64,000 bases of DNA from a bacterium (GCA_963662285.2 CAXXMV010000006.1:1088001-1152000); one strand, 5' to 3'. Counted from the stretch's first letter, positions 3,595 to 25,761 are shown. The notes: generated by a model from the sequence alone, not told the origin. Numbers and translations are program-made.

Positions 3595-4683
3595 TTATTC
3601 TATATCTTCTTTTACAGGTAATCTGATAATAAAAGTAGAGCCTTTTCCCTCTTCGCTTTTGAAACTTAAATTCCCATTATGCGCTTCAATGATCCGCTTG
3701 GTTATGGCTAAACCCAAGCCCGTACCTTTTTCTCCCTTGGTGGTAAAAAATGGTTGCCAGATTTTATCCTGTATGTCTGTAGGGATTCCACATCCTGTAT
3801 CGATAATATTGATCGTAATTTCTTTTTTATTGGAATTTACTTCAATAATCACGGAACCTTCTCCGTTCATGGCGTGGGCGGCATTTCGCAATAAATTGAT
3901 TAATACTTGAATGATTCGATCCTGGTCGCAGATAAAACAAGGATCGTCAGGATTTGTTATTTCATATTGGATGTGTTTAGTTTCTGGATCGAATTCGAGA
4001 ATGCTTAAAACCGGTACAAGTAATTTAGAAACGGCAATAGATTCCTGTTTCAAGGTCTCGCACGTCTGTTTCCCATACGATTTTATTTCGTTCAGGATAG
4101 TCAATATCCGGTCTCTAGCCATAACCACCTGATTGGAGACCTTATTGATCAATTCATCGTCTGGATGCATCTGTTGAATGAGTTGCACGCCCATCAATAC
4201 ACTAAGTTGGTTACGTACTTCATGGTTGATGCCGCTAGCCACCTGACCGACGGTCGCCAGTTTTTCCAACCGCACCACATCGTCTAATAATCTCCGATTT
4301 TCAATAGTTAATTCCAAATTTTCAAGCGCCCTTTTTACCGTGATCAATAAATCATTCGGATCCCATGGTTTATTGATATAGCGATAGACGCGGCCAGTGT
4401 TTATCGCCCCGATCAAATCATCAACATCAGTAAAACCAGTAAGAATGATGCGTACAATTCCCGGACATAATTCAATACTTTTTTCAAGGAATTCAACACC
4501 GGACATTCGCGGCATGCGTTGATCGCTAACAATCAGAGAGACCTGATGGGTTTGCAACAATTCCAGTCCTTCCGCTCCGCTTAAAGCCGTCAAGACTTCA
4601 TAATCTTTTCTCAAAACGCGCCGAAGCGCATCAAGGTTATATTCTTCATCATCCACACAGAGAATCGTATGCTTGAAACTCAT
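3595..4683 (-). CDS. Hybrid receiver-histidine kinase (REC-HisKA-HATPase)
   Basis: VDDE, SDQRMP and KPW receiver motifs, then H-box HEVRNQL, N-box NLLRNA, DTGCG, FFTTK and GTGLGL. Confidence 0.9.
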   Translation of the reverse strand: MSFKHTILCVDDEEYNLDALRRVLRKDYEVLTALSGAEGLELLQTHQVSLIVSDQRMPRMSGVEFLEKSIELCPGIVRIILTGFTDVDDLIGAINTGRVYRYINKPWDPNDLLITVKRALENLELTIENRRLLDDVVRLEKLATVGQVASGINHEVRNQLSVLMGVQLIQQMHPDDELINKVSNQVVMARDRILTILNEIKSYGKQTCETLKQESIAVSKLLVPVLSILEFDPETKHIQYEITNPDDPCFICDQDRIIQVLINLLRNAAHAMNGEGSVIIEVNSNKKEITINIIDTGCGIPTDIQDKIWQPFFTTKGEKGTGLGLAITKRIIEAHNGNLSFKSEEGKGSTFIIRLPVKEDIE

Positions 4684-4720
4684 TTTAATTTCTCCTGAAT
4701 ATAATAAAATAAAATAGAAT

Positions 4721-5305
4721 TCATTTGAATTTTTTTAATACTGTCAACAAACGGTTGATATCTACCGGTTTGATAATGAAATCGGTAGTTCCCCATTTCA
4801 AGGCTTCTTGTAAATAGTTCTTTTTCGGATTACCGGTCATAATAACCACCGGTGTTGTTGTATCGGTTTCCCTGATTATCCGGAGCGCATCCAAACCACT
4901 CATTTTTTTCATCTCGATATCCATTAAGACAAGGTCGGGTTGAACATCGTGGAATATACCTACGGCTTCCAGACCGTTGCCCGCCTCGGCCACAACATTA
5001 TAACCGTTAAGAATTAAAGTCCGCTTGATCATTTCACGGATGAAAACCACATCATCGACAATCATTATGGTGTTAATTGTTTTAGGGGATGAAATGGCCT
5101 GATCTTCATCAGGAACAACTGGCTTGGGCGCTAGAAAGGCAAGGGGTTCTTCCTGGGTTTCAACGCCCATGTGTTTGCGCCATTTTATGATTGTTTGCCG
5201 GAGATCATCGGTATCAATGATTCCGGAGTTGATCAGCACATCCGCTAATGCATATACAAATACTTGTTCAGTTTCCGAAGAAGGCTTCTCACTATTTTCA
5301 TTCAT
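4721..5305 (-). CDS. CheY-like response regulator with ~75-aa N-terminal extension
   Basis: IMIVDD, LVLMDIEM, MTG and IIKP receiver motifs in the C-terminal 120 aa. Confidence 0.85.
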   Translation of the reverse strand: MNENSEKPSSETEQVFVYALADVLINSGIIDTDDLRQTIIKWRKHMGVETQEEPLAFLAPKPVVPDEDQAISSPKTINTIMIVDDVVFIREMIKRTLILNGYNVVAEAGNGLEAVGIFHDVQPDLVLMDIEMKKMSGLDALRIIRETDTTTPVVIMTGNPKKNYLQEALKWGTTDFIIKPVDINRLLTVLKKFK

Positions 5306-5374
5306 GGTGACAATTTATTCTCCCTTAAAATATAGGGTAAGAGTGGTTTTCATCATAACATTCTGATTCGCCAT

Positions 5375-7456
5375 TTAAGGACGAATTGGTAAATTGAGAG
5401 TAAACAGAGCACCTTTTCCTGGTTCACTTATAACCGCTATACTACCCCCATGCTGTTCGATAATACTATATGAGATAGATAATCCTAAACCGGTTCCTTC
5501 ACCTACCGATTTTGTCGTGTAGAAAGGATCAAATATTTTCTCTTGGATATCAAGGGGGATTCCTTTGCCGTCATCACGAATTTCCACTACGGCCTTATCA
5601 TCATCCCGGTAGGTCGTGATCCAAACATTGCCCTGGCCTTCAATGGCCTGTTCTGCATTCGCTAATAGATTCAGGAAAACTTGATTGATCTGCCCAGGGG
5701 AACATTGCAGGAGAGGAATGTCGCCGTAATCTTTATGGATGGTTACATGTTCTTTGTAACGGTGGATCAGCAAATTGAGAGAACCATCGATTGCTTCGTG
5801 GATATCGTAAACTGAACGATAACTCTCATCCACGCGAGAATACTGGCGCAGATCAGCCACAATCTGCGCGATACGGTTCGAGCCATCGTCAAAAGAGCGA
5901 ATCAGTTTTTCCACATCATCTTTGGCGTAATCCAAATCCGCTTTGCGATAGGCCTCATCGAATAGGGAGCGAAGTTCATTGGGCAATTGTTCTTTTCTTT
6001 CGTATATGTCATCCACAATATTCTTATATCCAAACAAGTATTCTTTTAAGGAAGGGATGTTGCTTTTAATGAAATTGCTGGGATTATTGATTTCGTGGGC
6101 GATTCCCGCAACCAATTGCCCCAGAGAGGCCATTTTTTCCGAACGCAGCAATTGTTCCTTGGTGCGTTGAATCCGGTCATAACTTTTATATAGCATGATA
6201 AAAAGCCCGGCGGCGAATATTAAGATAAACAGGAACAACGTCATTAACCAAACGCCCGACATCTGCATGGGGACTCGAATATTAGCGGGCAAGGTTTGCA
6301 AAAAACGTTCAATGGAGTGGTATTGATCTTCATTGATAGATATGAGAAGAACGACCATTACGAAAAGTACAAATCCCTGTGTGAGAATCGGGAAGAAAAA
6401 CCAACAAGAACGGCTAATACTGAAATCCTGCATTTTTCTTTGACTTAAATTATCTCTATCTTCCATGGGATTTGATAGAAACATGAAAATCAATAAACAG
6501 TAGAGTCCGGATATTATAGCAAATGCAGCGCTTGGCCCGATTCTCTCTGGAATTTGGATATTGAGAATAATATCTGAAATTCCTATAAGACCTCCACATA
6601 AACCAGCCAGGAACAGGGTAACGGTCAATAATTCACCCTGTGGCATTTTTCGCAAGAACCCAGTTTTCGATTTCATTCCATAGAAGAGAGTTCCCCATAA
6701 AAGAACAATCAAACCTAGTAATACTGGATGGTGATCTGCTTGGATAAGATAGTATCCGAGTGCAAGCGATATGAAGATTCCTAGCCCGAATCCCAGTCGG
6801 CGCCATTTAATAGCAATCAAATATACCCACAGGCTGGAGCCAAAAACCAATAACAAGGAAGGCGTATCCACAAAATCCAAAATGCTGCTTCCCAGTAGGA
6901 TAGCCAATAGAAATAAGGTACTTAAAAGAATGTATCCTATGGAAACCGGAACGAGCGAACGTCTGACTTTCGTCTCATGGCAATGTTTCTTGGTTATTGC
7001 TGACGATCTGTTCATTAATAAAGCGGGGATCGGTAAAAGAAGACAAAAAGCAATTGAATATAAGAAAGTCAGCATACTTACGGCCAACGAAGCGGCAAGA
7101 TAATCCAAACTACTTAAACTACCGAGTATCTGAACGATCCCGATACTGTTTCCCAAAGCTCCGATAATCAGTAAGTTACGAATGACGCAATGCCAAAAAT
7201 AATCCCGATAAAACCGATCCTGTTTCGGTGACCGCCGATCAATCAAACTCGATGCTGCTTCTTTCATATCCCGAATCGAAAATTGGGTCCAGGTTAGTAA
7301 AAATCCACCTCCCAATGTCATGGTTAAAGAGGGATAGTCAATAAAAGACATAAATCCCACATCAAGAAACGCATAGCTGATTAATATCCCCACTAGCAGG
7401 ACAAGAAACAGAATAGCCAGGATAGCTGGAAAAAACCTTTGAAGCTCAGTATTCAT
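5375..7456 (-). CDS. Membrane sensor histidine kinase with two tandem MotA/PomA-like transmembrane modules
   Basis: C-terminal HEINNP, NLLANA, DDGKG and GTGLGL transmitter. N-terminal repeats FIDYPS..GG / GALGNSIGIVQIL..LAVSMLTFLY and FVDTPS..FGS / GLCGGLIG..IPERIGPSAAFAIISGLY resemble the PomA/MotA TM segments. Confidence 0.85.
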   Translation of the reverse strand: MNTELQRFFPAILAILFLVLLVGILISYAFLDVGFMSFIDYPSLTMTLGGGFLLTWTQFSIRDMKEAASSLIDRRSPKQDRFYRDYFWHCVIRNLLIIGALGNSIGIVQILGSLSSLDYLAASLAVSMLTFLYSIAFCLLLPIPALLMNRSSAITKKHCHETKVRRSLVPVSIGYILLSTLFLLAILLGSSILDFVDTPSLLLVFGSSLWVYLIAIKWRRLGFGLGIFISLALGYYLIQADHHPVLLGLIVLLWGTLFYGMKSKTGFLRKMPQGELLTVTLFLAGLCGGLIGISDIILNIQIPERIGPSAAFAIISGLYCLLIFMFLSNPMEDRDNLSQRKMQDFSISRSCWFFFPILTQGFVLFVMVVLLISINEDQYHSIERFLQTLPANIRVPMQMSGVWLMTLFLFILIFAAGLFIMLYKSYDRIQRTKEQLLRSEKMASLGQLVAGIAHEINNPSNFIKSNIPSLKEYLFGYKNIVDDIYERKEQLPNELRSLFDEAYRKADLDYAKDDVEKLIRSFDDGSNRIAQIVADLRQYSRVDESYRSVYDIHEAIDGSLNLLIHRYKEHVTIHKDYGDIPLLQCSPGQINQVFLNLLANAEQAIEGQGNVWITTYRDDDKAVVEIRDDGKGIPLDIQEKIFDPFYTTKSVGEGTGLGLSISYSIIEQHGGSIAVISEPGKGALFTLNLPIRP

Positions 7457-7491
7457 AGGCTTTCTTTCCTTTTCAATATTTAATGATCGAT

Positions 7492-7522
7492 AACATAAGT
7501 ATCCCTAAGCGTTAGTTGCAGC
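7492..7522 (-). promoter_or_regulatory. Shared promoter-like motif GCTGCAAC-N17-TATGTT upstream of the MotA-like kinase
   Basis: The same 8-mer and spacing recur at 8680-8710 and 25611-25641. Confidence 0.45.
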
Positions 7523-7572
7523 ATTATTTATAGCAATATTGACAATCATTGAAATATAAAGACAATTGCATA

Positions 7573-8649
7573 TTATTCGTATTCTTTTGTAAGTTTTAAA
7601 ATCTCATCCAAGTTTTCACAAAAGAGATCAGTTAAATCTGGATCAAAATGCTTCCCTTTTTCCTCTCTTATAATTTCAATTACTTTCTCATGAGGAAAGG
7701 CTTCTTTGTAAGGCCGCTTACTGGACAGAGCATCATAAACGTCCGCAAGCGCGCATATTCGGCCAGAGAGTGGAATATCTTCCCCCTTAAGCTGCTTTGG
7801 ATATCCCTTTCCATTCCACTTTTCATGATGGGAAAGGGCGATTATTTCCCCGGTTTGGATCAATTCAGAGGCAGAATCATTCAAAATACTGGCGCCAATC
7901 GTCGTATGTTTTTTAATGATTTCATATTCATCAACTGTTAACTTAGCGGGTTTAAGAAGGATATGATCGGGAATTCCAAGTTTGCCTACATCATGCATGG
8001 GACTGGCGAGTCGTATCAATTCAACATCATTTGCAGGAAGATTGAGTTTTAGGGCTATAAACTCACAGATCAAGCTAATTCGTTGTATGTGATTCCCTGT
8101 ACATTCATCTTTATATTCGGCAGCGATCACCAAACGCCGAATAGTATCTAAATGAGCTTGATGAGATTGTCGCTGGGCTGCGACCATTTCGTCGAGCGCT
8201 TTGCGCAGTGAAGCCGTACGTTGGTCGATTTTTGCTTCGAGTTCTTTTTGATAAATTTTTATAGCATCCTGCGCTTCTTTTTGTCTCAACAAAGAAGCCG
8301 TACGAATCCGTAATTCTATTTCATCAACAGGTTTGCAGATAAAATCACTGGCCCCCGCTTGCACAGCGCGAAGTTGATCTTCTTTTGATGTATTGCCAGT
8401 TACAACGCAAATAGGGATATCACGAACATCGGCGTCTTCCCGGATTCGCCGAACTACTTCAAAACCATCCATTCCGGGCATTTGTATATCGGTTAAAACC
8501 AGATCGATATCGAGTTTTACTTTGGCTAAAGCTTCGAATCCATCCTGAGCGGTTTCCGTTTCATGCCCGTGAAAATTCAAAATCGTGGCAAGCATATCAC
8601 GCAAGGCCTGTTCGTCGTCAACAATCAAAATACGTTTGGGAGAAGCCAT
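7573..8649 (-). CDS. Response regulator with HD-GYP phosphodiesterase domain (RpfG-like)
   Basis: N-terminal REC (VDDE, TDIQMP, KP), then MHDVGK, HHEKWNGKGYP, ADVYDAL and RPYK. Confidence 0.93.
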   Translation of the reverse strand: MASPKRILIVDDEQALRDMLATILNFHGHETETAQDGFEALAKVKLDIDLVLTDIQMPGMDGFEVVRRIREDADVRDIPICVVTGNTSKEDQLRAVQAGASDFICKPVDEIELRIRTASLLRQKEAQDAIKIYQKELEAKIDQRTASLRKALDEMVAAQRQSHQAHLDTIRRLVIAAEYKDECTGNHIQRISLICEFIALKLNLPANDVELIRLASPMHDVGKLGIPDHILLKPAKLTVDEYEIIKKHTTIGASILNDSASELIQTGEIIALSHHEKWNGKGYPKQLKGEDIPLSGRICALADVYDALSSKRPYKEAFPHEKVIEIIREEKGKHFDPDLTDLFCENLDEILKLTKEYE

Positions 8650-8679
8650 GAAATCCTCGGAATCGCTTTAATATAATGG

Positions 8680-8710
8680 ATTATAGAATTCACGCCAATT
8701 GAGTTGCAGC
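8680..8710 (-). promoter_or_regulatory. Shared promoter-like motif GCTGCAAC-N17-TATAAT upstream of the HD-GYP gene
   Basis: Perfect TATAAT exactly 17 nt after GCTGCAAC on the minus strand, 30 bp before the start codon. Confidence 0.5.
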
Positions 8711-8911
8711 GCCCCTTTTTATTTGTACAAAACTAACGGTCAAACCTTTGCGTAATGCAAATCAAGGGTGGATATCAATTTTTGGACTGCAATTAATTGC
8801 TGTCGAGAGATAGTCGCTCGAATTCCATGCTTAGATTCTCCCATAAAAAAATATGCTTGTCTATTGATCATATACCAATCTACTTCTGGTAATCGCTCTT
8901 ATTATGTTTTT

Positions 8912-10105
8912 TTAATTCGACTTAATTGGCAGTGACACAATAAATTTCGACCCTTTACCCATTTCGCTCTCCACCGCGATTCTTCCCTCATGTTGTTCAA
9001 TAATGCTGTAAGAAAGAGAAAGGCCCAGGCCAGTACCTGAACCAACCGGTTTTGTTGTAAAGAAGGGATCAAATATCTTGGATAGATTCTCTTTAGGAAT
9101 ACCAACGCCATTATCACGGATAGTAATTGTGATATTATTATCCTGATATCCGGTAAGCACCCAAATATCACCTCCGCTCTGATTAAATTCTATAGCGTTC
9201 TTGAGGATGTTAAAAAAAACTTGATTGATTTGACCGGGAGAACAGCGAGTCAGCGGGAATGATTTATATTCTTTATGTATGTTTATTTGATCTTTATAGA
9301 GAGGATAAAGCAATGTAAGCGACGAATCGATTGCTTCTTGAATATTGAAGGAAGAATAGTAGTCATCATCGACTTTGGAATATAGACGAAGATTATACAG
9401 GATACTGGCTATGCGATTTGAACCTTCATCAAAAGAGTCAAGAATTTTTTTTATGTCATCTAAATCATAATCGATCTCTTTCATCTTTTGCGGCAGATTT
9501 ATTTTTTTTAATACATCTTCAGGAATCTTTTGTTGATTATCAACAATAATTTTTACAAAAGAAAACAAATCCTGAATATCTTCCTTAAGCGGTTGTATAT
9601 TGCTTTTAATAAAGTTAACCGGATTATTAATCTCATGACACAATCCCGCAACAAGTTGCCCCAGAGACGCCATTTTGTCGGTTTGTATCAATTGCTGCTT
9701 TCGTAATTGGATCTGTTCTTCCATGCTTTTACGTTCTAGAACCCGGTTCAGGACTTGCAACAGATAATCCAAATCCAACGGTTTGGTAACAAAATCCGAT
9801 GCGCCGTTTTTCATGGCTTCAATAGCGCGTTCAACTGTCCCATAGGCTGTCATTATCACAACCGGGATATGAATTTTACGTTTTTGCAGTTCTGCTAACA
9901 GTTCAAGGCCATTGATTTCAGGCATCATGATATCAGAAATAATAATCGACGGCGTGCAGCTTTCTAATTTCGTTAATGCATCGGATCCATTGGATGCCGT
10001 GATTGTTTCAAAACCTTCCAACTCAAGAAAATCGCAGAGACTCAAACGGATATCTTCTTCATCGTCAATCACAAGCAATGGAATTTTATGTTCGATATCT
10101 CTCAT
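8912..10105 (-). CDS. Hybrid receiver-histidine kinase (REC-HisKA-HATPase)
   Basis: IDDE, SDIMMP and KP receiver motifs, then HEINNP, NILKNA, DNGVG and GTGLGL. Confidence 0.9.
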
Positions 10106-10108
10106 GGT

Positions 10109-10477
10109 TTACTCCTTATCAATAAGATGTCTGATAGCAGAGAGTAGAAAATCTTCATCAAAAGGTTTGAGCAATACCTCATCAGCGCCCAATTTCCTGG
10201 CTAGTTCTCTCGTTCCTCTTTGAGAGGAGGCGCTGACGATCACAACCGGTAGGTCGGGATGATTTTTTTTAATCCTTTGGAGCACTTCTATACCATCGAT
10301 GCCCGGTAATTTAATATCTAAAATAACCAGATCGGGAATTTTGGTTTCCAACCAGATCAGTGCATCTTCACCGGTTCCCACCAATTCTGAGGCATAGCCC
10401 TCAAACTCCAGCAAGTCGACCATACTTTCAGCGAGTTCCAGTTCATCGTCTACGATTAAAATTTTTGTTTCTGACAT
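10109..10477 (-). CDS. Single-domain response regulator
   Basis: ILIVDDE, LDIKLP, SA and LKPF; 122 aa. Confidence 0.9.
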   Translation of the reverse strand: MSETKILIVDDELELAESMVDLLEFEGYASELVGTGEDALIWLETKIPDLVILDIKLPGIDGIEVLQRIKKNHPDLPVVIVSASSQRGTRELARKLGADEVLLKPFDEDFLLSAIRHLIDKE

Positions 10478-10486
10478 AATTACTCT

Positions 10487-12088
10487 CTATTTAGGTTGAA
10501 TGGGTAAATTCAAAGTAAAAGTTGATCCCTTGCCCAATTCGCTTTCAACTGCCAGCGATCCTTCATGCATTTCTACTAGTTCTTTGACGATCGAAAGGCC
10601 CAGTCCGCTGCCGATGGCGCATTTTTGCGATTCCGCCGTACGGTAGAAACGTTCCCAGATTCTCAATCGATCCTGGGCTGACATACCAATTCCCGTATCA
10701 GTTATAGATAAAACAAGGCGATGGTTATCATTTCTCGTTAGGTTGATAATTACACGGCCATTTTCCGGTGTGTATTTGATCGCATTCCCTATCAATTCTC
10801 CCACAATGCGTTCCATTTTACCAGCATCAACCTTAATCTTGTACGAATCATCCTGGATTACTTTTTGCAGAGTGATTTTCTTTTGATCGGCGGCGGATTG
10901 GTTTTCTTTCACCACATTCTTAACCAGTGTATCGAAGGGCGTTTCGGTTTTTTCAAGAATCATCCTGCCGGACTCTATGCGATTCAGATCAAGAACATCA
11001 TTAATCAGATTGGTCAGACGGTTGACGGCTCCTTGTGCGCGATCCAGGACGTGTTGTTGTTTATCGGTCAGGCCTCCGCCCACACCGCGCATGAGATTAT
11101 CCAGATTGAGTTTTATGGTGGTCAGCGGCGTGCGCAGGTCATGCGAAGCTTGCGAAACAAAGACCGATTTCATCCGGTCCAGTTCCATCAGTTTTTCATT
11201 GGCCTGGACGAGTTCTTCATTGGCCTCATGCAATTCAGCCGTCCGCCGCTCGACCCGGTCTTCCAGTTCTTCACGCGCCTTGATCAAAGCGGTATCCCGT
11301 TCCTGTATCTGATCCAGCATATCGTTGAACACGTGAATTAACTGGCCGATTTCATCATTCCCTTGCGATTGAGCGCGAATGGAATAATTGCCTTGGTTGG
11401 AAATACCTTCCGCTGTTCTTGATAAAAGCAATACCGGTTCTGTAATCATACGCATCAAGCGCATTGCCAACAAATATGCTAATGTCAAAGATACAATTAA
11501 CACAAGTATGGTTATAAAAATAATATTAATTAATCGTCTGTTTAATTCTGTCAAATCACAGATGATTTCCATTTTGCCTTTGTGAATTGACGATCCATCC
11601 GAATAATCAAATAATTTTGATACTTGAATATAATCACGGGAGAATCGATAGTCGTGATCTTCGTGATCCAAGGGGGGGATATTATATACAGGTGTTTTTA
11701 CTAATTCTTTTAAGTCTTCAACGATTTCGGGCTTAAAATCCTGAATCGGCGAATTGATACTTTCTCCCTCAGTAAGCGCCCGGTCATATAAAGCAAAAAT
11801 TTCACGATCTTCACGAATGTATAGTCGGGCGGCAATGATTCTTTTATCTTTTCCAAGTTTCTCTAGAATATCGCATGCATCCTTTGGTACATTAAATTCA
11901 AGAGGCGCTTCGCAAAGAGAACACATAATTTCCGCTTGGATTAATAATCCGGATGCCATTTCCTTCTTAATCACTTCTTTTTCATAAATAATAAACATTA
12001 AAAAAGCCAGCAGCGCTGCCAGGCTGCATGATAAGATTACGATTAACGAGAGTTTTCGTTTTATGGACCAATCGCGTATGGGTCTCAT
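10487..12088 (-). CDS. Sensor histidine kinase with CHASE8-like periplasmic domain and HAMP
   Basis: N-terminus WSIKRKL-TM, APLEFN periplasmic motif, second TM, HAMP (DEIGQL..FNDML), H-box SHDLRTPL and G-boxes. Lies directly downstream of yfiR, like YfiN-type sensors. Confidence 0.85.
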   Translation of the reverse strand: MRPIRDWSIKRKLSLIVILSCSLAALLAFLMFIIYEKEVIKKEMASGLLIQAEIMCSLCEAPLEFNVPKDACDILEKLGKDKRIIAARLYIREDREIFALYDRALTEGESINSPIQDFKPEIVEDLKELVKTPVYNIPPLDHEDHDYRFSRDYIQVSKLFDYSDGSSIHKGKMEIICDLTELNRRLINIIFITILVLIVSLTLAYLLAMRLMRMITEPVLLLSRTAEGISNQGNYSIRAQSQGNDEIGQLIHVFNDMLDQIQERDTALIKAREELEDRVERRTAELHEANEELVQANEKLMELDRMKSVFVSQASHDLRTPLTTIKLNLDNLMRGVGGGLTDKQQHVLDRAQGAVNRLTNLINDVLDLNRIESGRMILEKTETPFDTLVKNVVKENQSAADQKKITLQKVIQDDSYKIKVDAGKMERIVGELIGNAIKYTPENGRVIINLTRNDNHRLVLSITDTGIGMSAQDRLRIWERFYRTAESQKCAIGSGLGLSIVKELVEMHEGSLAVESELGKGSTFTLNLPIQPK

Positions 12089-12098
12089 TTTATCACCT

Positions 12099-12716: not shown

Positions 12717-12744
12717 TGTTTTAGAAATTTATCCTAAAGATCCC

Positions 12745-14823: not shown

Positions 14824-15078
14824 AATTCATTCTCCTGACATTGCTTCATTTTACTATTACAAAAATCATCAAAACCGATACGTCAATTTGCCGTATACGC
14901 CGCGCTCGACTTCGGTGTAGGCTGTATACATCCCATTCGCTTCGTGCGTCTGACTATCAAGTAAATTGGTCCCAACAAGGCTTATTTCCAATTGTTTAGA
15001 TGGTTCCCAGCCCAACCGCACATCAAGTCGTCCATGCGGTGGGATTCCCCAATTATTGATTTCATCAACAAAGTAATA
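14504..15078. repeat. Junction repeat (5' end of copy A, 45-bp spacer, 3' end of copy B), near-identical to 18721-19295
   Basis: Colinear at offset 4217, and 14903-15078 equals 19120-19295 (176 bp identical by eye). Related junctions lie at ~20842-21245 and ~22965-23367. Confidence 0.9.
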
Positions 15079-16926: not shown

Positions 16927-16967
16927 TCATTCTCCACAATTTCGCTGACTTACATTACAAAAAAAAA

Positions 16968-19040
16968 TCAAAACCGATACGTCAGTTTGACGTACACGCC
17001 GCGCTCGACCTCCGAGGGTTTTCTATACACCGCCTTTGCCTCATGCGTTTGATCGTCCAGCAAATTCGTTCCGACCAGACTTATTTCCAAATTGTTTTTT
17101 GGTTTCCAACCCAAGCGGATATCGAGTCTTCCGTGTTGGGGTATTCCCCATCCTTCTATTTCATCGATAAAGTATAAGAAGGCGTCCAATTTAACGTCTT
17201 TCGTTAGATCGAAATAAGATTGAATGGATGCCTGATGGTGAGGTGATGAATTTTCTAGAGAATAATAATAAAAATCATTCGAGTTGTTCTTATGATGGAA
17301 CTGAATATCTAATACGGAATAACTGGCCATTAACTTCCAAAAATCGGTAATTTGTTCCGTCATGGACAGTTCCGCACCATACGTTTCTCCATTGATATTA
17401 TTACCCCAATATTCATAAACAACATAATGGGGAAGGGGATCCATATAGTAAGAAACGCGATCGTAATCCGCATCTAGAGTGATGAAATCATAGATCGTCG
17501 TGTAAAATGCCGTTAGATCGAACGATAGATTTCTTGTAGCCCGATATCGTTGACCTAATTCATACGATAGGATACTTTCAGACTTTAATCGTTCGCTATA
17601 ATTGACATACAATAACATGGGAATCCCATCCGGCGCAGACGTTGTAAGATTCGGCCACGATGAATCATAATTAAGGGGAAAATAATGTTGGGCGGAACGA
17701 GTGATAGAGGCCCAAATTGTATACTTTTCTGTTGGTGTATATACTAATTTGGCGCTGGGTTGGTAATCGAAATCAGAATAGTCGCTATATTGAATCTGAA
17801 TGCCGAGTGATAGTTTAAGTAGGTCTTCTGCAATAGAATAATTATCTTCGATAAAAACGCTTCCCGTTTGATCGTTGGCGTGACTGGAATTATATACGAT
17901 CGTTCGATCGGTCATATCGTCCATCGTAAGCTGATATCCACTTCCCACGATAAATTCATGATTGGAAAAGGGAGTAAACTCGTACTGAACGTTCGTTTTA
18001 ATATCGTGGTAATTGAACTTGGAAACAAAGTCATTGTCCAATAAAAAGTAGTTATAATAAGTATGCCATTTAATCTTAGAATCATCGTCTAATGTACGTT
18101 CCCAGAGAACTTGCAAATCAAGGCCCCTTTTATCGTATTCATATCGAGATTTAACAGGGAAAATTTCGGGAAGATCAATTTCTGGAATATACCAGGCGTA
18201 CCACACGTCGTTTTGAAATATCTCGCCTTGGAACGTAACATCGTCCTTTTCTGAAGGTGCCCAATCGATGCGAAAGCCGCTTTTGGCGTTAGACCAATCA
18301 TCGACGGAATCCTCTCCATTCGGAAATTTGAAACTATCGGCGTCACGATAAATCCCATATATACGATAATAAGCATCGTCCCCCATTTTCCCGCCGTATC
18401 GGAACACGCTTTTATACAAATCCGTCCCGGCGACGCCGGAAATCAAACCGCCTTGTGTGTCTTTCGCATGTTTTGTGATGATATTGATGACGCCGTTACC
18501 GGAATTCGTTCCCCAAAGCGTGCCGCCCGGACCTCGAATGATTTCTATACGTTCGATGTCCTCTAATGGATAATCAAGAATGTCCCAAAACATTCCGCCC
18601 ATTACTAAATCGTTTGTTTCGCGTCCGTCAAGTAAAATAAGTAATTCTGTAGTGTGCTCGGTTGCCAATCCTCGGGATCCGATTACCCATGTGTTTGAAT
18701 CCCCTCTTCCAACGAACAAACCGGGAACCATGCGCAGGAGATCGGGGATGTTGGTCGCGGCGGAGCGGGAGATATCCGTGGCTGTTATGACATAGGCGGC
18801 GGCGGGGGTTTCCCATACTTTCTGTGGCGTCTTGGATGCGAGCGAGATATATTCTTGAACGATGATTTCCGACAGTTCATCGATATCTTTCAGAAGCAGT
18901 TCCTTCATGCCGCTTGATGAGTCCTCTTCGACTGCATCAGCAGGAAGAGTGAAAAGCATGAATAGAATCGCCAGGCAAGCGATTTGCCGCAATAGCTGGT
19001 TAACGCTAAATAGAGAATTTTTTCGTATGGATTCATACAT
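16968..19040 (-). CDS. TonB-dependent receptor, copy C
   Basis: Same plug and barrel motifs, C-terminal KLTYRF. Confidence 0.92.
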   Translation of the reverse strand: MYESIRKNSLFSVNQLLRQIACLAILFMLFTLPADAVEEDSSSGMKELLLKDIDELSEIIVQEYISLASKTPQKVWETPAAAYVITATDISRSAATNIPDLLRMVPGLFVGRGDSNTWVIGSRGLATEHTTELLILLDGRETNDLVMGGMFWDILDYPLEDIERIEIIRGPGGTLWGTNSGNGVINIITKHAKDTQGGLISGVAGTDLYKSVFRYGGKMGDDAYYRIYGIYRDADSFKFPNGEDSVDDWSNAKSGFRIDWAPSEKDDVTFQGEIFQNDVWYAWYIPEIDLPEIFPVKSRYEYDKRGLDLQVLWERTLDDDSKIKWHTYYNYFLLDNDFVSKFNYHDIKTNVQYEFTPFSNHEFIVGSGYQLTMDDMTDRTIVYNSSHANDQTGSVFIEDNYSIAEDLLKLSLGIQIQYSDYSDFDYQPSAKLVYTPTEKYTIWASITRSAQHYFPLNYDSSWPNLTTSAPDGIPMLLYVNYSERLKSESILSYELGQRYRATRNLSFDLTAFYTTIYDFITLDADYDRVSYYMDPLPHYVVYEYWGNNINGETYGAELSMTEQITDFWKLMASYSVLDIQFHHKNNSNDFYYYSLENSSPHHQASIQSYFDLTKDVKLDAFLYFIDEIEGWGIPQHGRLDIRLGWKPKNNLEISLVGTNLLDDQTHEAKAVYRKPSEVERGVYVKLTYRF

Positions 19041-19295
19041 AATTCATTCTCCCGTCATTGCTTCATTTCACTATATCAAAAATCATCAAAACCGATATGT
19101 CAGTTTGCCGTATATGCCCCGCTCGACTTCGGTGTAGGCTGTATACATCCCATTCGCTTCGTGCGTCTGACTATCAAGTAAATTGGTCCCAACAAGGCTT
19201 ATTTCCAATTGTTTAGATGGTTCCCAGCCCAACCGCACATCAAGTCGTCCATGCGGTGGGATTCCCCAATTATTGATTTCATCAACAAAGTAATA
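18721..19295. repeat. Junction repeat (copy C/D boundary), partner of 14504-15078
   Basis: Direct sequence comparison; contains the 176-bp identical block 19120-19295. Confidence 0.9.
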
Positions 19296-21161
19296 ATTGG
19301 CATCAAATTGGATATCTTTGGTGATATTGAGATAGGACTGTAATTTAAATTGATGGTGAGGAGAGGCGTCTTCGAGAAAATAAAAAACGATATCTGTTGA
19401 ATTTGGTTTACGATGTAATTGAATATCGATTGCGGAGTAACTGGCCATGAGTTTCCAGTAATCGGTAATTTGCGCGTTGGCAGCCAGTTCTACTCCATAG
19501 GTTTCTCCATCAATATTATTTCCTGGATAGCCATATAAAACAATATGAGGAATTGGATCGGTGAATGAAATTTGATTATTCCAATCAATATCGGCTGTAC
19601 AATGATCATCAATAAAGTTATAAAAAACTGAAAGATCGAGAGACAGGTTACTAAATGCCTGAAGCCTTTGCCCGATTTCAAAGGTGAGAATGCTTTCAGA
19701 ATCCGCTTTTCCATCATAACTAAAATGAACCCGCATGGGGGGCGTCCCTTGTCCATATAGATCATAAAATGTCAAATAAGGCCAACTACATTCACTATGC
19801 GCCCGGTAATAATGTTGAACTGACCGAGTAATGGATGCCCAGATTGTATATTGTTCATATGGAGTATAGGCTAATTTTGCGCTGGGTTGATAATCGAAAC
19901 CGGAATAATCGCTATATTGGAATTGAGAACCGTAATAAAAATTTAGTTTGTCATCAATGATTGTGTAATTATCCTGGATAAAGGCAGTAAATGTTTGATC
20001 GTTTGCGCTTTGAGGTCTATATTCCAAAAAACCATCAACAGTATCATCTGATATTATCCGGTACCCGCTTCCGATAACGAAATCATGATTTGAAAAAGGC
20101 GTAAACTGGTATTGATAATCTGTTTTAAATGTATGGTAATTTAGATTCGATATAAAATCATTGTCCAATGAAAAATAGTCGTAATAAGTAAGCCATTTCA
20201 TCTTGGAACCGTTATTAAATGTGCGGTTCCATTGAACCATCAAATCCAGTCTATCTTTATCCTTAATATATCGATCTTTCATAGGATCGAATTGGGGATT
20301 GGCTTTTCCTGTCCAATTAAACCAAGCGTCATCTTGATATACTCCGCCTTGAAAAGTAAATTCATCTTGTTCAGAAGGCTCCCAATCGACTCGGAAACCC
20401 GCTTTTCCTAACGCCCAATCATCGACCGACTCTTGTCCATTAACATCCTTAAAGGCGTCAACATCTTTATATGCCCCAAAAATACGAAAAAAAGCATCTT
20501 CTCCCATTTTCCCACCATACCGGAACACGCTTTTATATAAATCAGTACCAACCAAGCCTGATAGAAGTCCTCCTTGAGTGTCTTTTGAATGCTTTGTAAT
20601 TATGTTAATAACGCCGTTTCCGGAATTCGTTCCCCAAAGCGTACCTCCCGGGCCACGAATAATTTCGATCCTTTCAATATCCTCCAATGGATAATCCTGA
20701 ATACTCCATAAAACTCCACCCCAATTTGTAAAGTTCGCTTGGCGGCCATCAATCAATACAAGCAAATCAACTGCGTATTCATTTGCCAATCCCCTAGATC
20801 CAACGATCCATGTACTCGAATCAGCTTGTCCGACAAACAAGCCGGGAACCATGCGTAATAGATCGGGGATGTTAGTGGCGGCGGAGCGGGAGATATCCGT
20901 GGCTGTTATGACATAGGCGGCGGCGGGGGTTTCCCATACTTTCTGTGGCGTCTTGGATGCGAGCGAGATATATTCTTGAACGATGATTTCCGACAGTTCG
21001 TCGATATCTTTAAGAAGAAGTTCTTTTAGTCCACTGGATGCGTCCTCTTCGACGGCATCAGCAGGAAGAGTGAAAAGCATGAATAGAATTGCCAGGCAAG
21101 CAATTTGCCGCAATAGTCGGTTAACACTAGATCGAGAATTTTTTCGTATGGATTCATACAT
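19086..21161 (-). CDS. TonB-dependent receptor, copy D
   Basis: Same plug and barrel motifs; C-terminal ~65 aa almost identical to copy B. Confidence 0.92.
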   Translation of the reverse strand: MYESIRKNSRSSVNRLLRQIACLAILFMLFTLPADAVEEDASSGLKELLLKDIDELSEIIVQEYISLASKTPQKVWETPAAAYVITATDISRSAATNIPDLLRMVPGLFVGQADSSTWIVGSRGLANEYAVDLLVLIDGRQANFTNWGGVLWSIQDYPLEDIERIEIIRGPGGTLWGTNSGNGVINIITKHSKDTQGGLLSGLVGTDLYKSVFRYGGKMGEDAFFRIFGAYKDVDAFKDVNGQESVDDWALGKAGFRVDWEPSEQDEFTFQGGVYQDDAWFNWTGKANPQFDPMKDRYIKDKDRLDLMVQWNRTFNNGSKMKWLTYYDYFSLDNDFISNLNYHTFKTDYQYQFTPFSNHDFVIGSGYRIISDDTVDGFLEYRPQSANDQTFTAFIQDNYTIIDDKLNFYYGSQFQYSDYSGFDYQPSAKLAYTPYEQYTIWASITRSVQHYYRAHSECSWPYLTFYDLYGQGTPPMRVHFSYDGKADSESILTFEIGQRLQAFSNLSLDLSVFYNFIDDHCTADIDWNNQISFTDPIPHIVLYGYPGNNIDGETYGVELAANAQITDYWKLMASYSAIDIQLHRKPNSTDIVFYFLEDASPHHQFKLQSYLNITKDIQFDANYYFVDEINNWGIPPHGRLDVRLGWEPSKQLEISLVGTNLLDSQTHEANGMYTAYTEVERGIYGKLTYRF

Positions 21162-21206
21162 AATTCATTCTCCCGTCATTGCTTGATTTTGCTATATCAA
21201 AAATCA

Positions 21207-23285
21207 TCAAAACCGATATGTCAGTTTGCCGTATACGCCCCGCTCGGCTTCGGTATATTTCGTGTATATACCGGTGGCTTCATGCGTTTGATCGTTAAGC
21301 AAATTCTTTCCAACGACGCTCACTTCCAACTTATCGGTTGGCTTCCATCCAAGTCTGAGATCGAGCCTTCCATGCGTAGGAATTCTCCAATTGTTAATTT
21401 CATCGATCCAATAATAAGATGCATCAAACTGAATATCTTTGGTGAGATCGAAATAGGAATTAATTTTGAACTGATGATGGGGAGAGGCGTCTTCTAGAGA
21501 ATAAGAAAAGATATCCATAGAATTATGTTTACGGTGCAATTGTATATCCAAGGCCGAGTAACTGGCCATCAGTTTCCAAGAATCTGTGATTTGCGTGTTA
21601 AGCGCCAGTTCTGCTCCATAAGTTTCTCCATCAATATTATTGCCTACATATGAATCTACTATATAATGAATAATCGGATCATTGAATAGAATGGGATGTT
21701 CAAAATCCGGATCGACTGTCATATTATCTTTAATCATATTGTAAAATGTGTTGAGTTCGATGGATAAGTTCTTATTCGCTTGAAGCCTTTGGCCGATTTC
21801 GAAAGATAAAATATTTTCTGAACCCGCATGACCTTCATAACTTAAACGCATAAGCATAGGGATGTTTGAACCGGGGAAATAATCGGCTAAATTAGTATAA
21901 CTTTCCTCATTTTCTCCCCGGTAATAATGTTGGGCGGATCGAGTAATGGCCGCCCAAAGCGTATACATTTTTGTTGGAGTATAAGTTAATTTTACGCTGG
22001 GCTGATAATCAAAACCGGAATAATCGCTGTATTGGAGTTGAGTGCCTAAAGATAGGTTTAGCTTTTCTTCAATAATTGTGTAGTTATCTTGAATGAAAGC
22101 TGTGAATGTTTGATCGTTGGCGCTTGGCGGCTCGAATTCACACCATAAATCCGGTTCAACTTCATCCGATACGAGCCGATATCCGCTTCCCACAATGAAT
22201 TCATGATTTGGAAAAGGATCGAACTGGTATTGAAAATCCGTTTTCAAAGTCTGATATTTCCAATATGCGAGAAAATCATTTTCTAGTGAAAAATAGTCGT
22301 AATAAGAAAGCCATTTCATCTTGGATCCGTCTTCAAAAGTATGGTCCCATTGAACCTGCAAATCGAAACCTTTCTTATCTTTTTCGTATCTCTCTTTGAC
22401 AGGATATAATTCTGAAGGAAGATAATTTGGAGTATGCCAATTGAACCAAACGTCATCTTGAAACGCGTCTCCTTGAAATGTAAGTTCATCCTGCTGAGAA
22501 AACTGCCAATCGATTCGAAATCCCGCCTTAGCTAACGACCAATCATCTACTGAATGGCTTCCGTCCACATCGTTGAATGAATCGACGTCTTTATATGTTC
22601 CGTACAGTCTGTAAAAAGCATCGTCGCCCATTTTCCCGCCATATCGGAATGTCCCTTTATACAAATCCGTCCCTACAATACCGGAAAGAAGACCCCCCTG
22701 TGTGTCTCTGGCATGTTTTGTGATGATATTGATGACGCCGTTACCGGAATTGGTACCCCAAAGCGTACCCCCCGGTCCCCGGATGATTTCAATTCGCTCG
22801 ATGTCTTCCAATGGATAATCTTGTACATTCCAAAATATCCCTCCCCAAATATAATTATTCACTTGGCGGCCATCAATCAATACCAACAAATCAACCGCGT
22901 ATTCGTTCGCCAAGCCTCGGGTACCAACAATCCATGTACTTGAATCTGCGTTGCCGACAAACAAACCGGGTACCATACGCAGAAGATCGGGGATATTTGT
23001 AGCAGCGGAGCGGGAGATATCCGTAGCGGTGATGACATAAGCGGCGGCGGGCGTTTCCCAGACCTTCTCCGGCCTCTTGGAGGCAAGCGAGATATATTCT
23101 TGAACGATGATATCCCCCAGTTCGTCGATATCTTTAAGAAGAAGTTCTTTTAGTCCACTGGATGCGTCCTCTTCGACGGCATCAACAGGAAGAGTGAACA
23201 GCATGAATAGAATCGCCAGGCAAGCGATTTGCCGCAATAGCTGGTTAACGCTAAATAGAGAATTTTTTCGTATGGATTCATACAT
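21207..23285 (-). CDS. TonB-dependent receptor, copy E
   Basis: Same motifs. Start set at MYESIRK (23285) by homology to copies C and D (the ORF track starts at 23303). Confidence 0.92.
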   Translation of the reverse strand: MYESIRKNSLFSVNQLLRQIACLAILFMLFTLPVDAVEEDASSGLKELLLKDIDELGDIIVQEYISLASKRPEKVWETPAAAYVITATDISRSAATNIPDLLRMVPGLFVGNADSSTWIVGTRGLANEYAVDLLVLIDGRQVNNYIWGGIFWNVQDYPLEDIERIEIIRGPGGTLWGTNSGNGVINIITKHARDTQGGLLSGIVGTDLYKGTFRYGGKMGDDAFYRLYGTYKDVDSFNDVDGSHSVDDWSLAKAGFRIDWQFSQQDELTFQGDAFQDDVWFNWHTPNYLPSELYPVKERYEKDKKGFDLQVQWDHTFEDGSKMKWLSYYDYFSLENDFLAYWKYQTLKTDFQYQFDPFPNHEFIVGSGYRLVSDEVEPDLWCEFEPPSANDQTFTAFIQDNYTIIEEKLNLSLGTQLQYSDYSGFDYQPSVKLTYTPTKMYTLWAAITRSAQHYYRGENEESYTNLADYFPGSNIPMLMRLSYEGHAGSENILSFEIGQRLQANKNLSIELNTFYNMIKDNMTVDPDFEHPILFNDPIIHYIVDSYVGNNIDGETYGAELALNTQITDSWKLMASYSALDIQLHRKHNSMDIFSYSLEDASPHHQFKINSYFDLTKDIQFDASYYWIDEINNWRIPTHGRLDLRLGWKPTDKLEVSVVGKNLLNDQTHEATGIYTKYTEAERGVYGKLTYRF

Positions 23286-23330
23286 AATTGATTCTCCCGT
23301 CATTGCTTCATTTTACTATTACAAAAATCC

Positions 23331-25412
23331 TCAAAACCGATACGTCAGTTTGCCGTATACGCCGCGCGGGACTTCGGAAGCGAAATGCCAATATGCTGAC
23401 AATTCTTCTCGATGGCGGTCATCCAAAATATTATGCGCTGCAATGCTCATTTCCAAATTTTGGGTAGGTTTCCAACCTAATCGCATATCGAAGCGAGTAT
23501 AAGCTGGAATATCTTGACGATTATCGACAAAATAGAGAGAGGCGTCTAATTCCAAATCCCACGGAAGGTCAAGATAGGAATGGAATTTAATTTGATTGTG
23601 AGGGAAATTAGTCTCTCTCCCATCATCATCTCCTAAAAGAAAGCCGCCGGGCGCCATATGCCATTCAAGATCCAATGCTGCGTAACTGGCTAATAAACGC
23701 CAATAATCAGTTACCTTTGAATCAATAACAAACTCCACGCCGTATGTCTCACCATCCATACTATTTGAATATGTATATTGTAATTCATAATATGGGGGTG
23801 GGCCTGCACGTAAAACCGGATCGAGAGTATCCGCTGTCCACAGATCATTATCATTTTTATAAAATGCCGTCAAATCAAACGAGAATCGTTCATTTAGCCG
23901 AATTCGTTGACCGATTTCAAACGATTGAAAATTCTCGGATTTCTTCATTGGGTAGTCAGATCCAAAAAAATAAATCGGAGGCAAAGCAGGATCATAGGGA
24001 TTTTCAAAACATAATATACCATAATACGCTCCCTCTTCTGATCGGCTGGGAATTCTTACGGCGCGTGAAACAGAAGCCCAGGTTGTATAGTTTTGATTGG
24101 GTGTATACGCCAGCCTTGCCGATGGTTGAAACTCAAAGCCAGTGTAATCATTATGCTCAAGTTTAGCGCCTATAGTAAAATCAATATCTTCGCAAATGTT
24201 GATCGTATCTTGTAAAAAGGTCGAAATGAGTTGCGGCGTATCAGGTTTTGGATGAAATTCGATAAATTTATTAGTATAATCATCAAATAAAACACGGTAA
24301 TTAATGCCTATGATGGCATCGTGATGTGGGAAAGGACTAAAGCGATACTGGCCATCAAGATCAAAAATATGAGATTCGAAGCCAAACATTATATCAAAAT
24401 CGTACGCGAAATAATCGTAATAGATCTGTAATTTTAAGTCGGAGTCGTCTTGAAGGCTCTTATCCCAATTCAATAAAAAACTAACGGCTTCCTGATTCAC
24501 GCTAACGCCATGATAATCAATTCGATAAGGTGGTCCAATCACTGGACGTGTTGTGGAATTATGATTCAAACCGTTTAATGCGTTTACCTGAAACATAAAT
24601 GCGTCGTCATCAGTAGGATTCCAATCAAATCTAAATCCGGCTTGTTCCATGTTCCAATCATCATGTGCATCATTACCTAACTCATCTTTGAATTCGTCCA
24701 CATCCCTGTATTTACCGTAAACGCGATAATACAAGTCCTTGTTAATTGCTCCTCCATATCGTACGCCGCCTCCAATTTCGTTAGTTCCTCCCAATATGTT
24801 GAGAAATCCACCTTGAGTTTCTTTGGCATGCTTTGTAATAATATTTATAACGCCATTTACTGCATTTGACCCCCATAAAGTCGCGCCCGGTCCACGAATG
24901 ACTTCAATTTGTTCGATATCTTCCAAAATGTAGTCTTGCGCGTTCCAAAAAGTGCCTGATAGTACAGGACTATACACAGAACGCCCATCTATCATGACCA
25001 ATAAATCTCTTGTTAAGAGCCATGTGTAACCACGCGAGCCGATCGTCCATGTATTTGCGTTCATATTACTGACGAGAAAGCCGGGAACCATACGCAAAAG
25101 ATCAGGTATGGTAGTGATACCTGAGCGGCGAATTTCCGTCGAAGAAATGACATACGCAGCAGCAGGCGTTCCCCACAACTTATCTTCTTTCTTGGAGGCG
25201 CTATAGATATAGACAGGAATATCCCCCAGTTCATCGATATCGGTCAGAAGAAGTTCCTTTAAACTCTCATCAGAAGAACTTTGAGATTCTTGAGCAAAAC
25301 ATTGAAAGAGTAACATGGATGATAATGAAAAGAGAATAAAAAAATATAATACAGAATATCGAATTGATGCCGCGTAAAAAGACATCTCATTCTGTTTTTT
25401 TGAATTGAGCAT
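23331..25412 (-). CDS. TonB-dependent receptor, copy F (first transcribed, most divergent)
   Basis: Canonical GSNAVNGVINIITK and SRAVRIPSR motifs, C-terminal KLTYRF. ATG at 25412 has a GGGAG RBS (the ORF track starts at 25460). Confidence 0.92.
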   Translation of the reverse strand: MLNSKKQNEMSFYAASIRYSVLYFFILFSLSSMLLFQCFAQESQSSSDESLKELLLTDIDELGDIPVYIYSASKKEDKLWGTPAAAYVISSTEIRRSGITTIPDLLRMVPGFLVSNMNANTWTIGSRGYTWLLTRDLLVMIDGRSVYSPVLSGTFWNAQDYILEDIEQIEVIRGPGATLWGSNAVNGVINIITKHAKETQGGFLNILGGTNEIGGGVRYGGAINKDLYYRVYGKYRDVDEFKDELGNDAHDDWNMEQAGFRFDWNPTDDDAFMFQVNALNGLNHNSTTRPVIGPPYRIDYHGVSVNQEAVSFLLNWDKSLQDDSDLKLQIYYDYFAYDFDIMFGFESHIFDLDGQYRFSPFPHHDAIIGINYRVLFDDYTNKFIEFHPKPDTPQLISTFLQDTINICEDIDFTIGAKLEHNDYTGFEFQPSARLAYTPNQNYTTWASVSRAVRIPSRSEEGAYYGILCFENPYDPALPPIYFFGSDYPMKKSENFQSFEIGQRIRLNERFSFDLTAFYKNDNDLWTADTLDPVLRAGPPPYYELQYTYSNSMDGETYGVEFVIDSKVTDYWRLLASYAALDLEWHMAPGGFLLGDDDGRETNFPHNQIKFHSYLDLPWDLELDASLYFVDNRQDIPAYTRFDMRLGWKPTQNLEMSIAAHNILDDRHREELSAYWHFASEVPRGVYGKLTYRF

Positions 25413-25610
25413 ATCTCTTCTCCCATGAAATAAAGGATAATAAACATTAACATAAATCAATCGATAGATAAATAGAATATATGTTTTTGGAATAGTAATA
25501 ATAATTTGATTTAATTTAAAATTGGATGAGAATCATGAAAATTATCTGAAAAATAAGTTAAATTCTATTCATTTCATTTCCCTTAAGTCATGTAATAATA
25601 GATTCTTATA

Positions 25611-25641
25611 TGGATAAAGTAGTGAAAAGCCGGGTTGCAGC
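25611..25641 (-). promoter_or_regulatory. Shared promoter-like motif GCTGCAAC-N17-TATCCA upstream of the receptor array
   Basis: Third occurrence of the motif, about 200 bp upstream of copy F. Confidence 0.4.
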
Positions 25642-25761
25642 CATTATTTTGATTAAACGAACTTCTGGGGGTAGGTTGGAGCGCAAAACGGCCTCTACGC
25701 AAATAGTCCACTGCTGCATTCAACCTGCCAGGATAATCTGCAGTTTAGAGCGTTTGTCAAA

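Follow-up and report, generated by a model that had tools for sequence, protein, structure and literature searches.

Why should a bacterium place six outer-membrane receptor genes ahead of single genes for a periplasmic protein and a sensor kinase, and do these receptors report to the kinase or simply take up nutrients? The question is raised by a locus in a 64,000-nucleotide stretch of bacterial DNA (GCA_963662285.2 CAXXMV010000006.1:1088001-1152000, here called the window), whose open reading frame (ORF) map shows 14 co-oriented minus-strand genes running from 25412 to 3595. The core module, 25412-8912, encodes six TonB-dependent receptors (T1-T6, in the order of transcription), a YfiR-like protein, a sensor kinase, a stand-alone receiver (REC) protein and a REC-kinase. 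We propose that this core is an expanded and divergent copy of a widespread envelope sensor consisting of a receptor, a YfiR-like protein and a CHASE8-type kinase, and we put the whole chain, from capture at a receptor to the phosphorelay, at a probability of roughly 45%. The identity of the three parts and their functional coupling are highly probable; the direct capture of the YfiR-like protein by a receptor falls a little short of even odds. Receptor capture is favored, the sensing of imported ligands is a close rival, and the two are not exclusive. The trio itself is already catalogued; what is new here is the copy number, the share of the genome's receptors that the array holds (six of seven) and the divergence of the receptor loops.

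Parts of the core module

From T1 to the REC-kinase, the intergenic gaps are 27, 45, 45, 41, 45, 28, 10, 9 and 3 bp, and those after the REC-kinase are 262, 116, 69 and 37 bp. An earlier note on this DNA, made from the sequence alone, had described 14 co-oriented genes with their domains, gaps of 3-45 bp over 25412-8912, no DNA-binding output and no tonB/exbBD in the window. All of this is borne out by the ORF map, the coordinates and Pfam: no DNA-binding domain is found in the 14 proteins at E <= 0.01, no TonB_C or MotA_ExbB match scores above cut-off within the window, and all matches of the genome to these two families lie elsewhere. The observation of that note is confirmed, and its interpretation is partly supported.

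The receptor genes lie on the minus strand at 23331-25412/25460 (T1), 21207-23303 (T2), 19086-21161 (T3), 16968-19040 (T4), 14869-16926 (T5) and 12745-14823 (T6, adjoining the YfiR-like gene). Their products are six proteins of 685-709 aa, each with Plug and TonB_dep_Rec_b-barrel domains in Pfam, and at the DNA level the array is a tandem repeat of six units spaced 2090-2127 bp. The AlphaFold2 model of T6 (predicted local distance difference test, pLDDT, 87.2; predicted template-modelling score, pTM, 0.86) places the plug within a 22-strand barrel, an arrangement shared with TonB-dependent transporters, and Foldseek superposes this model on PirA, Cir, ChuA and BtuB with TM scores of 0.70-0.75. 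The sequence matches of T4 in the PDB are the plugs of Cir, PfeA, FhuA and BtuB. Ahead of the plug lies a short strand-forming stretch, 'EIIIQEYISLASK' compared with 'MNIEITSVSKK' of the family in the alignment, which is a candidate TonB-box region.

Seven Plug-domain matches exist in the genome, and six of them are the array. The seventh receptor, outside the window (G000 contig C1:279000-293000, L125), is a 995-aa protein with a CarboxypepD_reg N-terminus and sits in a cluster of DUF3450, ExbB (541 aa), ExbB, ExbD, TonB and TPR genes. The genome has three TonB_C and seven MotA_ExbB matches, and one ExbB-ExbB-ExbD-TonB cluster adjoins the seventh receptor; this cluster is most likely the energizer of the six receptors in the window.

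The gene at 12099-12716 (minus strand) encodes a DUF4154 protein, 'YfiR/HmsC-like' in Pfam (E 7e-23, 81.7 bits, cut-off 24.9), with a signal-peptide-like N-terminus in its translation, as expected of a periplasmic protein. It is the single DUF4154 match of its own genome. A profile of its relatives finds the solved Pseudomonas aeruginosa YfiR in the PDB with E 9e-10; the single-sequence PDB search gave nothing meaningful. A word-indexed homolog search returned only the protein itself, and an exhaustive search returned 7330 representatives, of which the best non-self member is 39% identical. Fused YfiR-kinase forms were not found among the longer proteins, which is weak evidence. Three YfiR-like representatives of 342-378 aa (P0003, P0013 and P0098) have two or three matched stretches and are probably tandem YfiR-YfiR fusions by sequence, and three loci (L058, L077 and L080) each carry two adjacent YfiR-like genes.

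The inner-membrane sensor kinase at 10487-12088 (minus strand) consists of a transmembrane segment, a CHASE8-like periplasmic domain (about residues 35-185), a second transmembrane segment, HAMP, HisKA and HATPase_c. In Pfam, the CHASE8 match itself stays below threshold (E 3.6e-4, 21.2 of 27 bits). A sensor profile was built from 11 kinases that adjoin YfiR-like genes in relatives, taking the first 200 residues of each; Pfam calls nine of these kinases CHASE8-positive at E <= 1e-5. This profile covers residues 4-207 of the window kinase with E 1.3e-28. The kinase N-terminus also matches the NCBIfam family NF053592 with 137.2 bits, below the cut-off of 194. Taken together, the two matches strengthen the 'CHASE8-like' call that had been made before. 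The sensor domain carries the motif 'EAPLEF', for which relatives have 'AAAIAF' or 'TAALDF'; it is reminiscent of the hydrophobic motif, conserved in YfiN, that binds YfiR according to Malone 2012 (PMC3375315).

Two genes complete the core on the same strand. The stand-alone REC at 10109-10477, assigned by Pfam, follows the kinase also in two related loci (L018 and L019), and so does the last core gene, the REC-HisKA-HATPase second-tier kinase at 8912-10105, whose best NCBIfam subfamily is NF038348 (224 bits, cut-off 450).

The receptor, YfiR-like protein and sensor trio is conserved

NCBIfam release 20.0 models the three proteins as a TOL_0244 family receptor (NF053590), a TOL_0243 family YfiR-like periplasmic protein (NF053591) and a YfiR-like protein-associated kinase (NF053592). 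For each protein of the window trio the corresponding model is the best or most specific match, below the curated cut-off: the six receptors reach 441-547 bits on NF053590 against a cut-off of 645 (T1 highest with 547, T4 452, T6 448), and the YfiR-like protein reaches 75.8 bits on NF053591, its sole NCBIfam family match, against 125. The catalogued trio and the window agree in their three components and in how these are ordered on one strand; the difference is that the former has one receptor and the window has six. Our literature searches found no experimental study of the NCBIfam trio and no paper on a receptor-YfiR link. Malone 2012 (PMC3375315) does describe YfiR-YfiN[PAS/HAMP] cores with kinase outputs, without YfiB, in distant bacteria, and its alignment includes YfiNR carriers such as Opitutus terrae and Geobacter sp. 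M21; the word 'TonB' is absent from its main text, and also from the main text of a 2022 review treating CHASE8.

Two samples show how regularly the trio occurs. The first consists of 41 genomes of relatives, including the window's own, of which 12 have a YfiR-like match. They contain 15 YfiR-like loci outside the own genome; in one, the sequence breaks off at the YfiR-like gene, leaving 14 with upstream DNA. In 13 of these 14, the gene immediately preceding the YfiR-like gene encodes a receptor, and in 13 of the 15 a HAMP kinase directly follows. Pfam calls nine of these kinases CHASE8-positive, and often they are hybrids that also carry REC and Hpt domains. Two loci (L020 and L030) hold a receptor-YfiR pair without an adjacent kinase. 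The second sample crosses phyla and comprises 80 loci that are the best tblastn matches to the alignment of YfiR-like relatives, thus representing the subfamily nearest the query rather than a random draw of DUF4154. Among the 69 loci with at least 2.3 kb of upstream DNA, a same-strand receptor is present in 53 (49 with one, three with two and one with three), as called by a purpose-built hidden Markov model, on which 15 of the 53 nearest receptors score below 300 bits and are more distant receptors. A same-strand receptor is missing in 16 of the 69, six of which have a divergent receptor. The CHASE8-like/HAMP sensor directly follows the YfiR-like gene in 71 of the 75 loci with enough downstream DNA. 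By record title, the 80 loci belong to Verrucomicrobiota, Acidobacteriota, Planctomycetota, Nitrospirae, Ignavibacteria, 'Deltaproteobacteria' and others, and in the tree some rows also fall in Thermodesulfobacteriota and Myxococcota. The linkage of receptor, YfiR and sensor that had been read from the window alone is thus real and conserved.

The number of receptors, in turn, is exceptional. Receptor copies range from 0 to 3 in the 69 cross-phylum loci, where 45 by a hand count have at least 8.5 kb of upstream DNA and hence room for four copies, and from 0 to 2 in the relatives' loci; six is unmatched in the 69 and the 14 loci. This neighbourhood survey indicates that multi-receptor arrays are not common; the single-receptor trio is the form already present in NCBIfam. 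At E <= 1e-80, two relatives have eight receptor-family matches over six contigs (G009) and ten over seven contigs (G011), with three and two YfiR-like genes, respectively: relatives scatter their receptors, and the window genome concentrates them. The closest YfiR-like relative (37% identity) is that of L018, on an 8-kb contig (C174 of G013) whose start is 314 bp away. Since this contig begins at the YfiR-like gene, the assembly may break in the receptor array, and short-read genomes may under-report such arrays.

Divergence among the six receptors

T2-T6 are 62-73% identical to each other and about 43% identical to T1, the older paralog. In a quick IQ-TREE search, T1, the two receptors of the orthologous locus in G009 and T2-T6 form a clade with support of 100 in the Shimodaira-Hasegawa-like approximate likelihood-ratio test (SH-aLRT), within which T2-T6 are monophyletic (support 91) and T1 is sister to all the others.

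We assigned the receptor regions from the AlphaFold2 model of T6, with the topology inferred from strand order. Among T2-T6, the plug is 85% identical (ratio of nonsynonymous to synonymous divergence, dN/dS, 0.07) and the strands 71%. The predicted surface loops are 52% identical (dN 0.42, dN/dS 0.22), and the predicted periplasmic turns, which span only 32 columns, are 53% identical. These values bear out the diversified six-receptor panel proposed earlier (52% in the loops, 85% in the plug). On this modelled topology, diversification is in the loops, yet not in the outward ones alone. Judging from their sequences, all six receptors are intact and under purifying selection.

The synonymous divergence dS is 1.4-1.9 over most of the receptor genes, which is saturated, and 0.65-0.82 in the first ~120 codons. 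Because dS is this high over most of the gene, the conservation of the plug reflects selection and not recent copying; gene conversion as the cause of plug conservation in T2-T6 is rejected, as dS is saturated there (1.4), and the values of 1.4-1.9 likewise reject recent duplication as the origin of the six receptors. The copies are old, with a homogenized 5' end. The 5' ~300 nt of T6, T4, T3 and T2 (14441-14740, 18658-18957, 20779-21078 and 22903-23202) are 82-90% identical in DNA, with a maximum of 96% nucleotide identity in this 5' part, compared with ~70% in the rest of the genes. This pattern indicates a putative gene-conversion tract that spans the signal peptide, the linker and the TonB-box region.

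A proposed mechanism and its relation to known systems

In the YfiBNR system, YfiB sequesters YfiR and YfiN is released (Xu 2016, PMC4887326). The window shares with YfiBNR of P. aeruginosa and Escherichia coli a periplasmic protein of the DUF4154/YfiR family, an inner-membrane sensor that joins a YfiN-type periplasmic domain to HAMP, and an outer-membrane partner encoded alongside. HmsCDE of Yersinia is the counterpart of YfiBNR. The systems differ at both ends. The YfiBNR partner is the OmpA/Pal-like lipoprotein YfiB, whereas the window has a 22-strand receptor in six copies, and Pfam finds no OmpA domain in the 14 proteins; the receptors occupy the place of YfiB. Likewise, the output of YfiN is a GGDEF cyclase, in contrast to the window sensor, whose output is a HisKA/HATPase phosphorelay with no GGDEF.

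We propose the following sequence of events. The YfiR-like protein would bind and hold the periplasmic sensor domain of the kinase, as in YfiBNR, and the receptors would replace YfiB as the outer-membrane partner. A receptor loaded with its ligand would capture the YfiR-like protein at its periplasmic face, thus freeing the kinase. Any of six ligands could therefore switch one channel, giving a many-to-one, OR-like input. The kinase would then pass phosphate to two receivers, the stand-alone REC and that of the second-tier kinase, whose candidate target is the neighbouring REC-HD-GYP protein. At the same time, the receptors are probably real TonB-powered importers, possibly of glycan fragments.

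Known TonB-dependent transducers of cell-surface signalling are of the FecA-FecR-FecI type. These have an N-terminal signalling domain, which was not detected on the window receptors, and act through an anti-sigma/ECF (extracytoplasmic function) sigma pair, of which Pfam finds none in the locus. The relay proposed here differs in that it would run from a soluble YfiR-like protein to a two-component kinase.

Acidobacteriota, Verrucomicrobiota, Planctomycetota, Nitrospirota, Thermodesulfobacteriota, Myxococcota (some of whose records are titled 'Deltaproteobacteria') and further phyla commonly carry the trio. If the receptors of the trio signal through the YfiR-like protein, diderm bacteria have a widespread and unrecognized route that reports outer-membrane events to kinases; if the docking reading is true, this is a further TonB-dependent trans-envelope route, feeding two-component kinases and not sigma factors. 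The six-receptor locus lends itself to testing this, with one adaptor, one kinase and receptors that differ mainly in their surface loops. Binding, specificity and integration could be assayed with a single downstream read-out, and it is the cleanest many-to-one example that we have seen. The locus is also a warning against labelling such arrays 'siderophore receptors' or plain uptake genes. That receptors of this family in general are ligand-gated docking sites for a YfiR-like adaptor, with six of seven receptors serving here as the sensor panel of one kinase, is a bolder proposal, and we regard it as doubtful.

Receptor capture or sensing of imported ligands

Does a receptor touch the YfiR-like protein? 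Such a contact had been suggested for this locus, and it now has weak support from a fold test that paired T6 residues 37-692 (53-row alignment) with residues 26-205 of the YfiR-like protein (32 rows). The pair scored 0.52 (runs 0.52, 0.52 and 0.56), compared with 0.00 for the best of three controls; agreement between the runs covers at least 71% of contacts, and the partner pLDDT is at least 82. In calibration, 116 of 157 solved complexes passed the mark, as did 2 of 215 mismatched pairs, and passing scores of 0.60 or below came from only 18 of the 157 complexes and from both passing mismatches; these counts hold only roughly here, as our own alignments were used. In our reading, the odds of a direct contact thereby rise, short of proof, from perhaps one in three to about even.

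Several observations weigh against capture by the receptors. The fold test was passed only weakly and without an interface. Pfam detects no N-terminal signalling domain on the six receptors, and in the T6 model only a linker of ~25 residues, with low pLDDT, separates the signal peptide from the plug region. All three proteins of the window trio lie below their NCBIfam cut-offs, which makes the window copy an outlier whose behaviour may depart from that of the trio elsewhere. The predicted periplasmic turns vary as much as the surface loops in T2-T6 (53% and 52% identity). The 16 of 69 loci without a same-strand receptor suggest that YfiR-sensor pairs can work without one. Finally, receptors of the same family occur apart from YfiR, in eight loci (L126-L133) of G009, G011 and G002. 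These unlinked receptors adjoin DUF4962/heparinase II/III-like genes (L127 and L130), GH16 (L132), a sulfatase (L126), DUF6259 (L129) or an acetyl-xylan-esterase-like hydrolase (L131), and L128 and L133 have no glycan-enzyme neighbour. The basic job of the family thus looks like uptake, and the eight loci suggest glycan uptake loci resembling polysaccharide utilization loci in this small phylum, as far as gene neighbours can tell. YfiR-linked and unlinked receptors interleave in a FastTree phylogeny, and no column of the alignment tells 11 linked receptors from 10 unlinked ones by being conserved in the former and rare in the latter. There is thus no sign of a dedicated docking surface, and any contact with YfiR would use features common to the whole family. 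By its sequences the family looks like working transporters, possibly for glycans, and the proposal of the earlier note that this is a surface-sensing system 'rather than a nutrient-uptake locus' is not borne out.

The best-surviving alternative builds on these observations. Here, the six receptors are ordinary TonB-powered importers, and an imported ligand binds the YfiR-like protein or the kinase sensor in the periplasm. The periplasmic sensing of imported oligosaccharides in Bacteroides utilization loci follows a similar logic. The glycan-degrading neighbours of the unlinked receptors, the lack of columns specific to YfiR-linked receptors and the standard transporter fold of the T6 model all agree with such import-coupled sensing. 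So do two published observations: in P. aeruginosa, vitamin B6 or L-Trp occupies the site on YfiR to which YfiB binds (PMC4887326), and TOL_0244, which the one paper we found on it interprets as an alkane transporter, was sevenfold up on n-C28 in Thalassolituus (PMC6304351). However, no inner-membrane transporter or catabolic gene was found in or beside the locus; the kinase-less receptor-YfiR pairs (L020 and L030) suggest a tighter pair than a shared ligand needs; and the fold test, weak as it is, leans towards contact. We consider sensing of imported ligands possible, though rather unlikely, and capture of the YfiR-like protein by the receptors is retained as the favored reading.

Downstream genes: one pathway or separate modules

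A 262-bp gap (8650-8911) separates the core from the next gene on the same strand, 7573-8649, which encodes a REC-HD-GYP response regulator and putative cyclic di-GMP (c-di-GMP) phosphodiesterase (HD_5 E 1.9e-31, REC E 1.3e-28 in Pfam; 197 bits on NF053512, cut-off 400). Its translation shows the HD and GYP motifs 'MHDVGK' and 'GKGYP'. REC-HD-GYP response regulators are known as RpfG-type; this putative enzyme has REC and HD-GYP with both motifs as they do, and its adjacency to the receptor trio is not conserved.

Three kinase and receiver genes follow on the minus strand. The first, 5375-7456, encodes a 693-aa kinase with a MotA/ExbB-like multi-pass membrane domain; the membrane part spans ~430 residues, and Pfam gives MotA_ExbB only E 0.01. 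Its residues 19-213 match, with E 4.7e-31, a stretch of the own genome whose ORF has a MotA_ExbB score of 49.4 bits, which strengthens the earlier 'MotA-like' call; an ESM Atlas search with the domain gave nothing usable. With a proton-channel-like domain fused to it, the kinase may be a sensor of membrane energization. The second, 4721-5305, encodes a REC protein with an N-terminal extension of ~75 residues (Pfam; ortholog in G009 at L123 8717-9307), and the third, 3595-4683, a REC-HATPase kinase-like protein that ends the strand run (Pfam; ortholog at L123 9331-10413). This MotA-like kinase trio is separately conserved, recurring in G009 (L123 6481-10413, contig C20) with no HD-GYP gene.

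It is possible to read all 14 genes, as the earlier note did, as one pathway, with the REC-HD-GYP protein at the end of the phosphorelay and a lowered c-di-GMP level as the result. The genes are on the same strand and closely spaced (262 and 116 bp), the regulator has a receiver and intact HD and GYP motifs, no other output domain is present in the locus, and a c-di-GMP network exists in the genome, where GGDEF has 12 matches. In contrast, the orthologous cores L018 and L019 keep the order YfiR, HAMP kinase, REC and REC-kinase and end there, followed by unrelated opposite-strand genes and no HD-GYP. In G009, the YfiR module lies on a different contig (C8) from the MotA-like trio. The genome also has 12 HD_5-type genes, and the 262-bp gap itself sets the core apart. 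Consensus scans over 3000-13000 are uninformative for this gap, which could hold a promoter, and point neither way on transcription (29 promoter matches compared with 27.9 in shuffles, and 10 terminator matches compared with 8.9). Since the HD-GYP gene and the MotA-like trio are not linked to the receptor trio in relatives, the c-di-GMP output is unproven, possible but unsupported. By gene order, the 14 genes appear to be separable modules and not necessarily one system; the single 14-gene system ending in c-di-GMP hydrolysis is not borne out, and we judge it improbable.

That there is no signalling link at all, with a plain uptake operon sharing its transcript with an unrelated YfiR-kinase pair, would fit the YfiR-sensor pairs without a same-strand receptor in our survey and in Malone 2012 (PMC3375315) and the receptors of this family without YfiR, but is very improbable given the adjacency in 53 of 69 loci of many phyla in the same order and strand, the modelling of the three families as a set by NCBI curators, and an array that combines six of seven receptors with the genome's only YfiR-like gene.

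Neighbouring genes

Upstream of T1 lies an 870-bp non-coding stretch (25413-26282), AT-rich beside T1 and without an ORF of at least 100 aa, which is the presumed promoter region of the array. An Rfam scan across the window for riboswitches and other RNA families gave no match at gathering score. Across the 870 bp, divergent from T1, 26283-28523 (+) encodes a 746-aa fusion of SulP permease, STAS and cyclic-nucleotide-binding domains. The window is dense in signalling genes, including a 1170-aa PAS-HisKA-HATPase-REC-REC-Hpt kinase at 35963-39475 (-) and a 732-aa PAS-GAF-HisKA-HATPase kinase at 49463-51661 (-). Other genes include 39812-41698 (+), encoding a beta-propeller protein of 628 aa that weakly matches di-haem peroxidase (CCP_MauG), and 46620-49109 (+), encoding an 829-aa protein that matches the hydrazine-synthase-alpha middle domain (E 9e-21). 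At 54298-56841 (+) lies a gene for an 847-aa protein with two tandem periplasmic-binding-protein modules (Peripla_BP_6/ANF_receptor).

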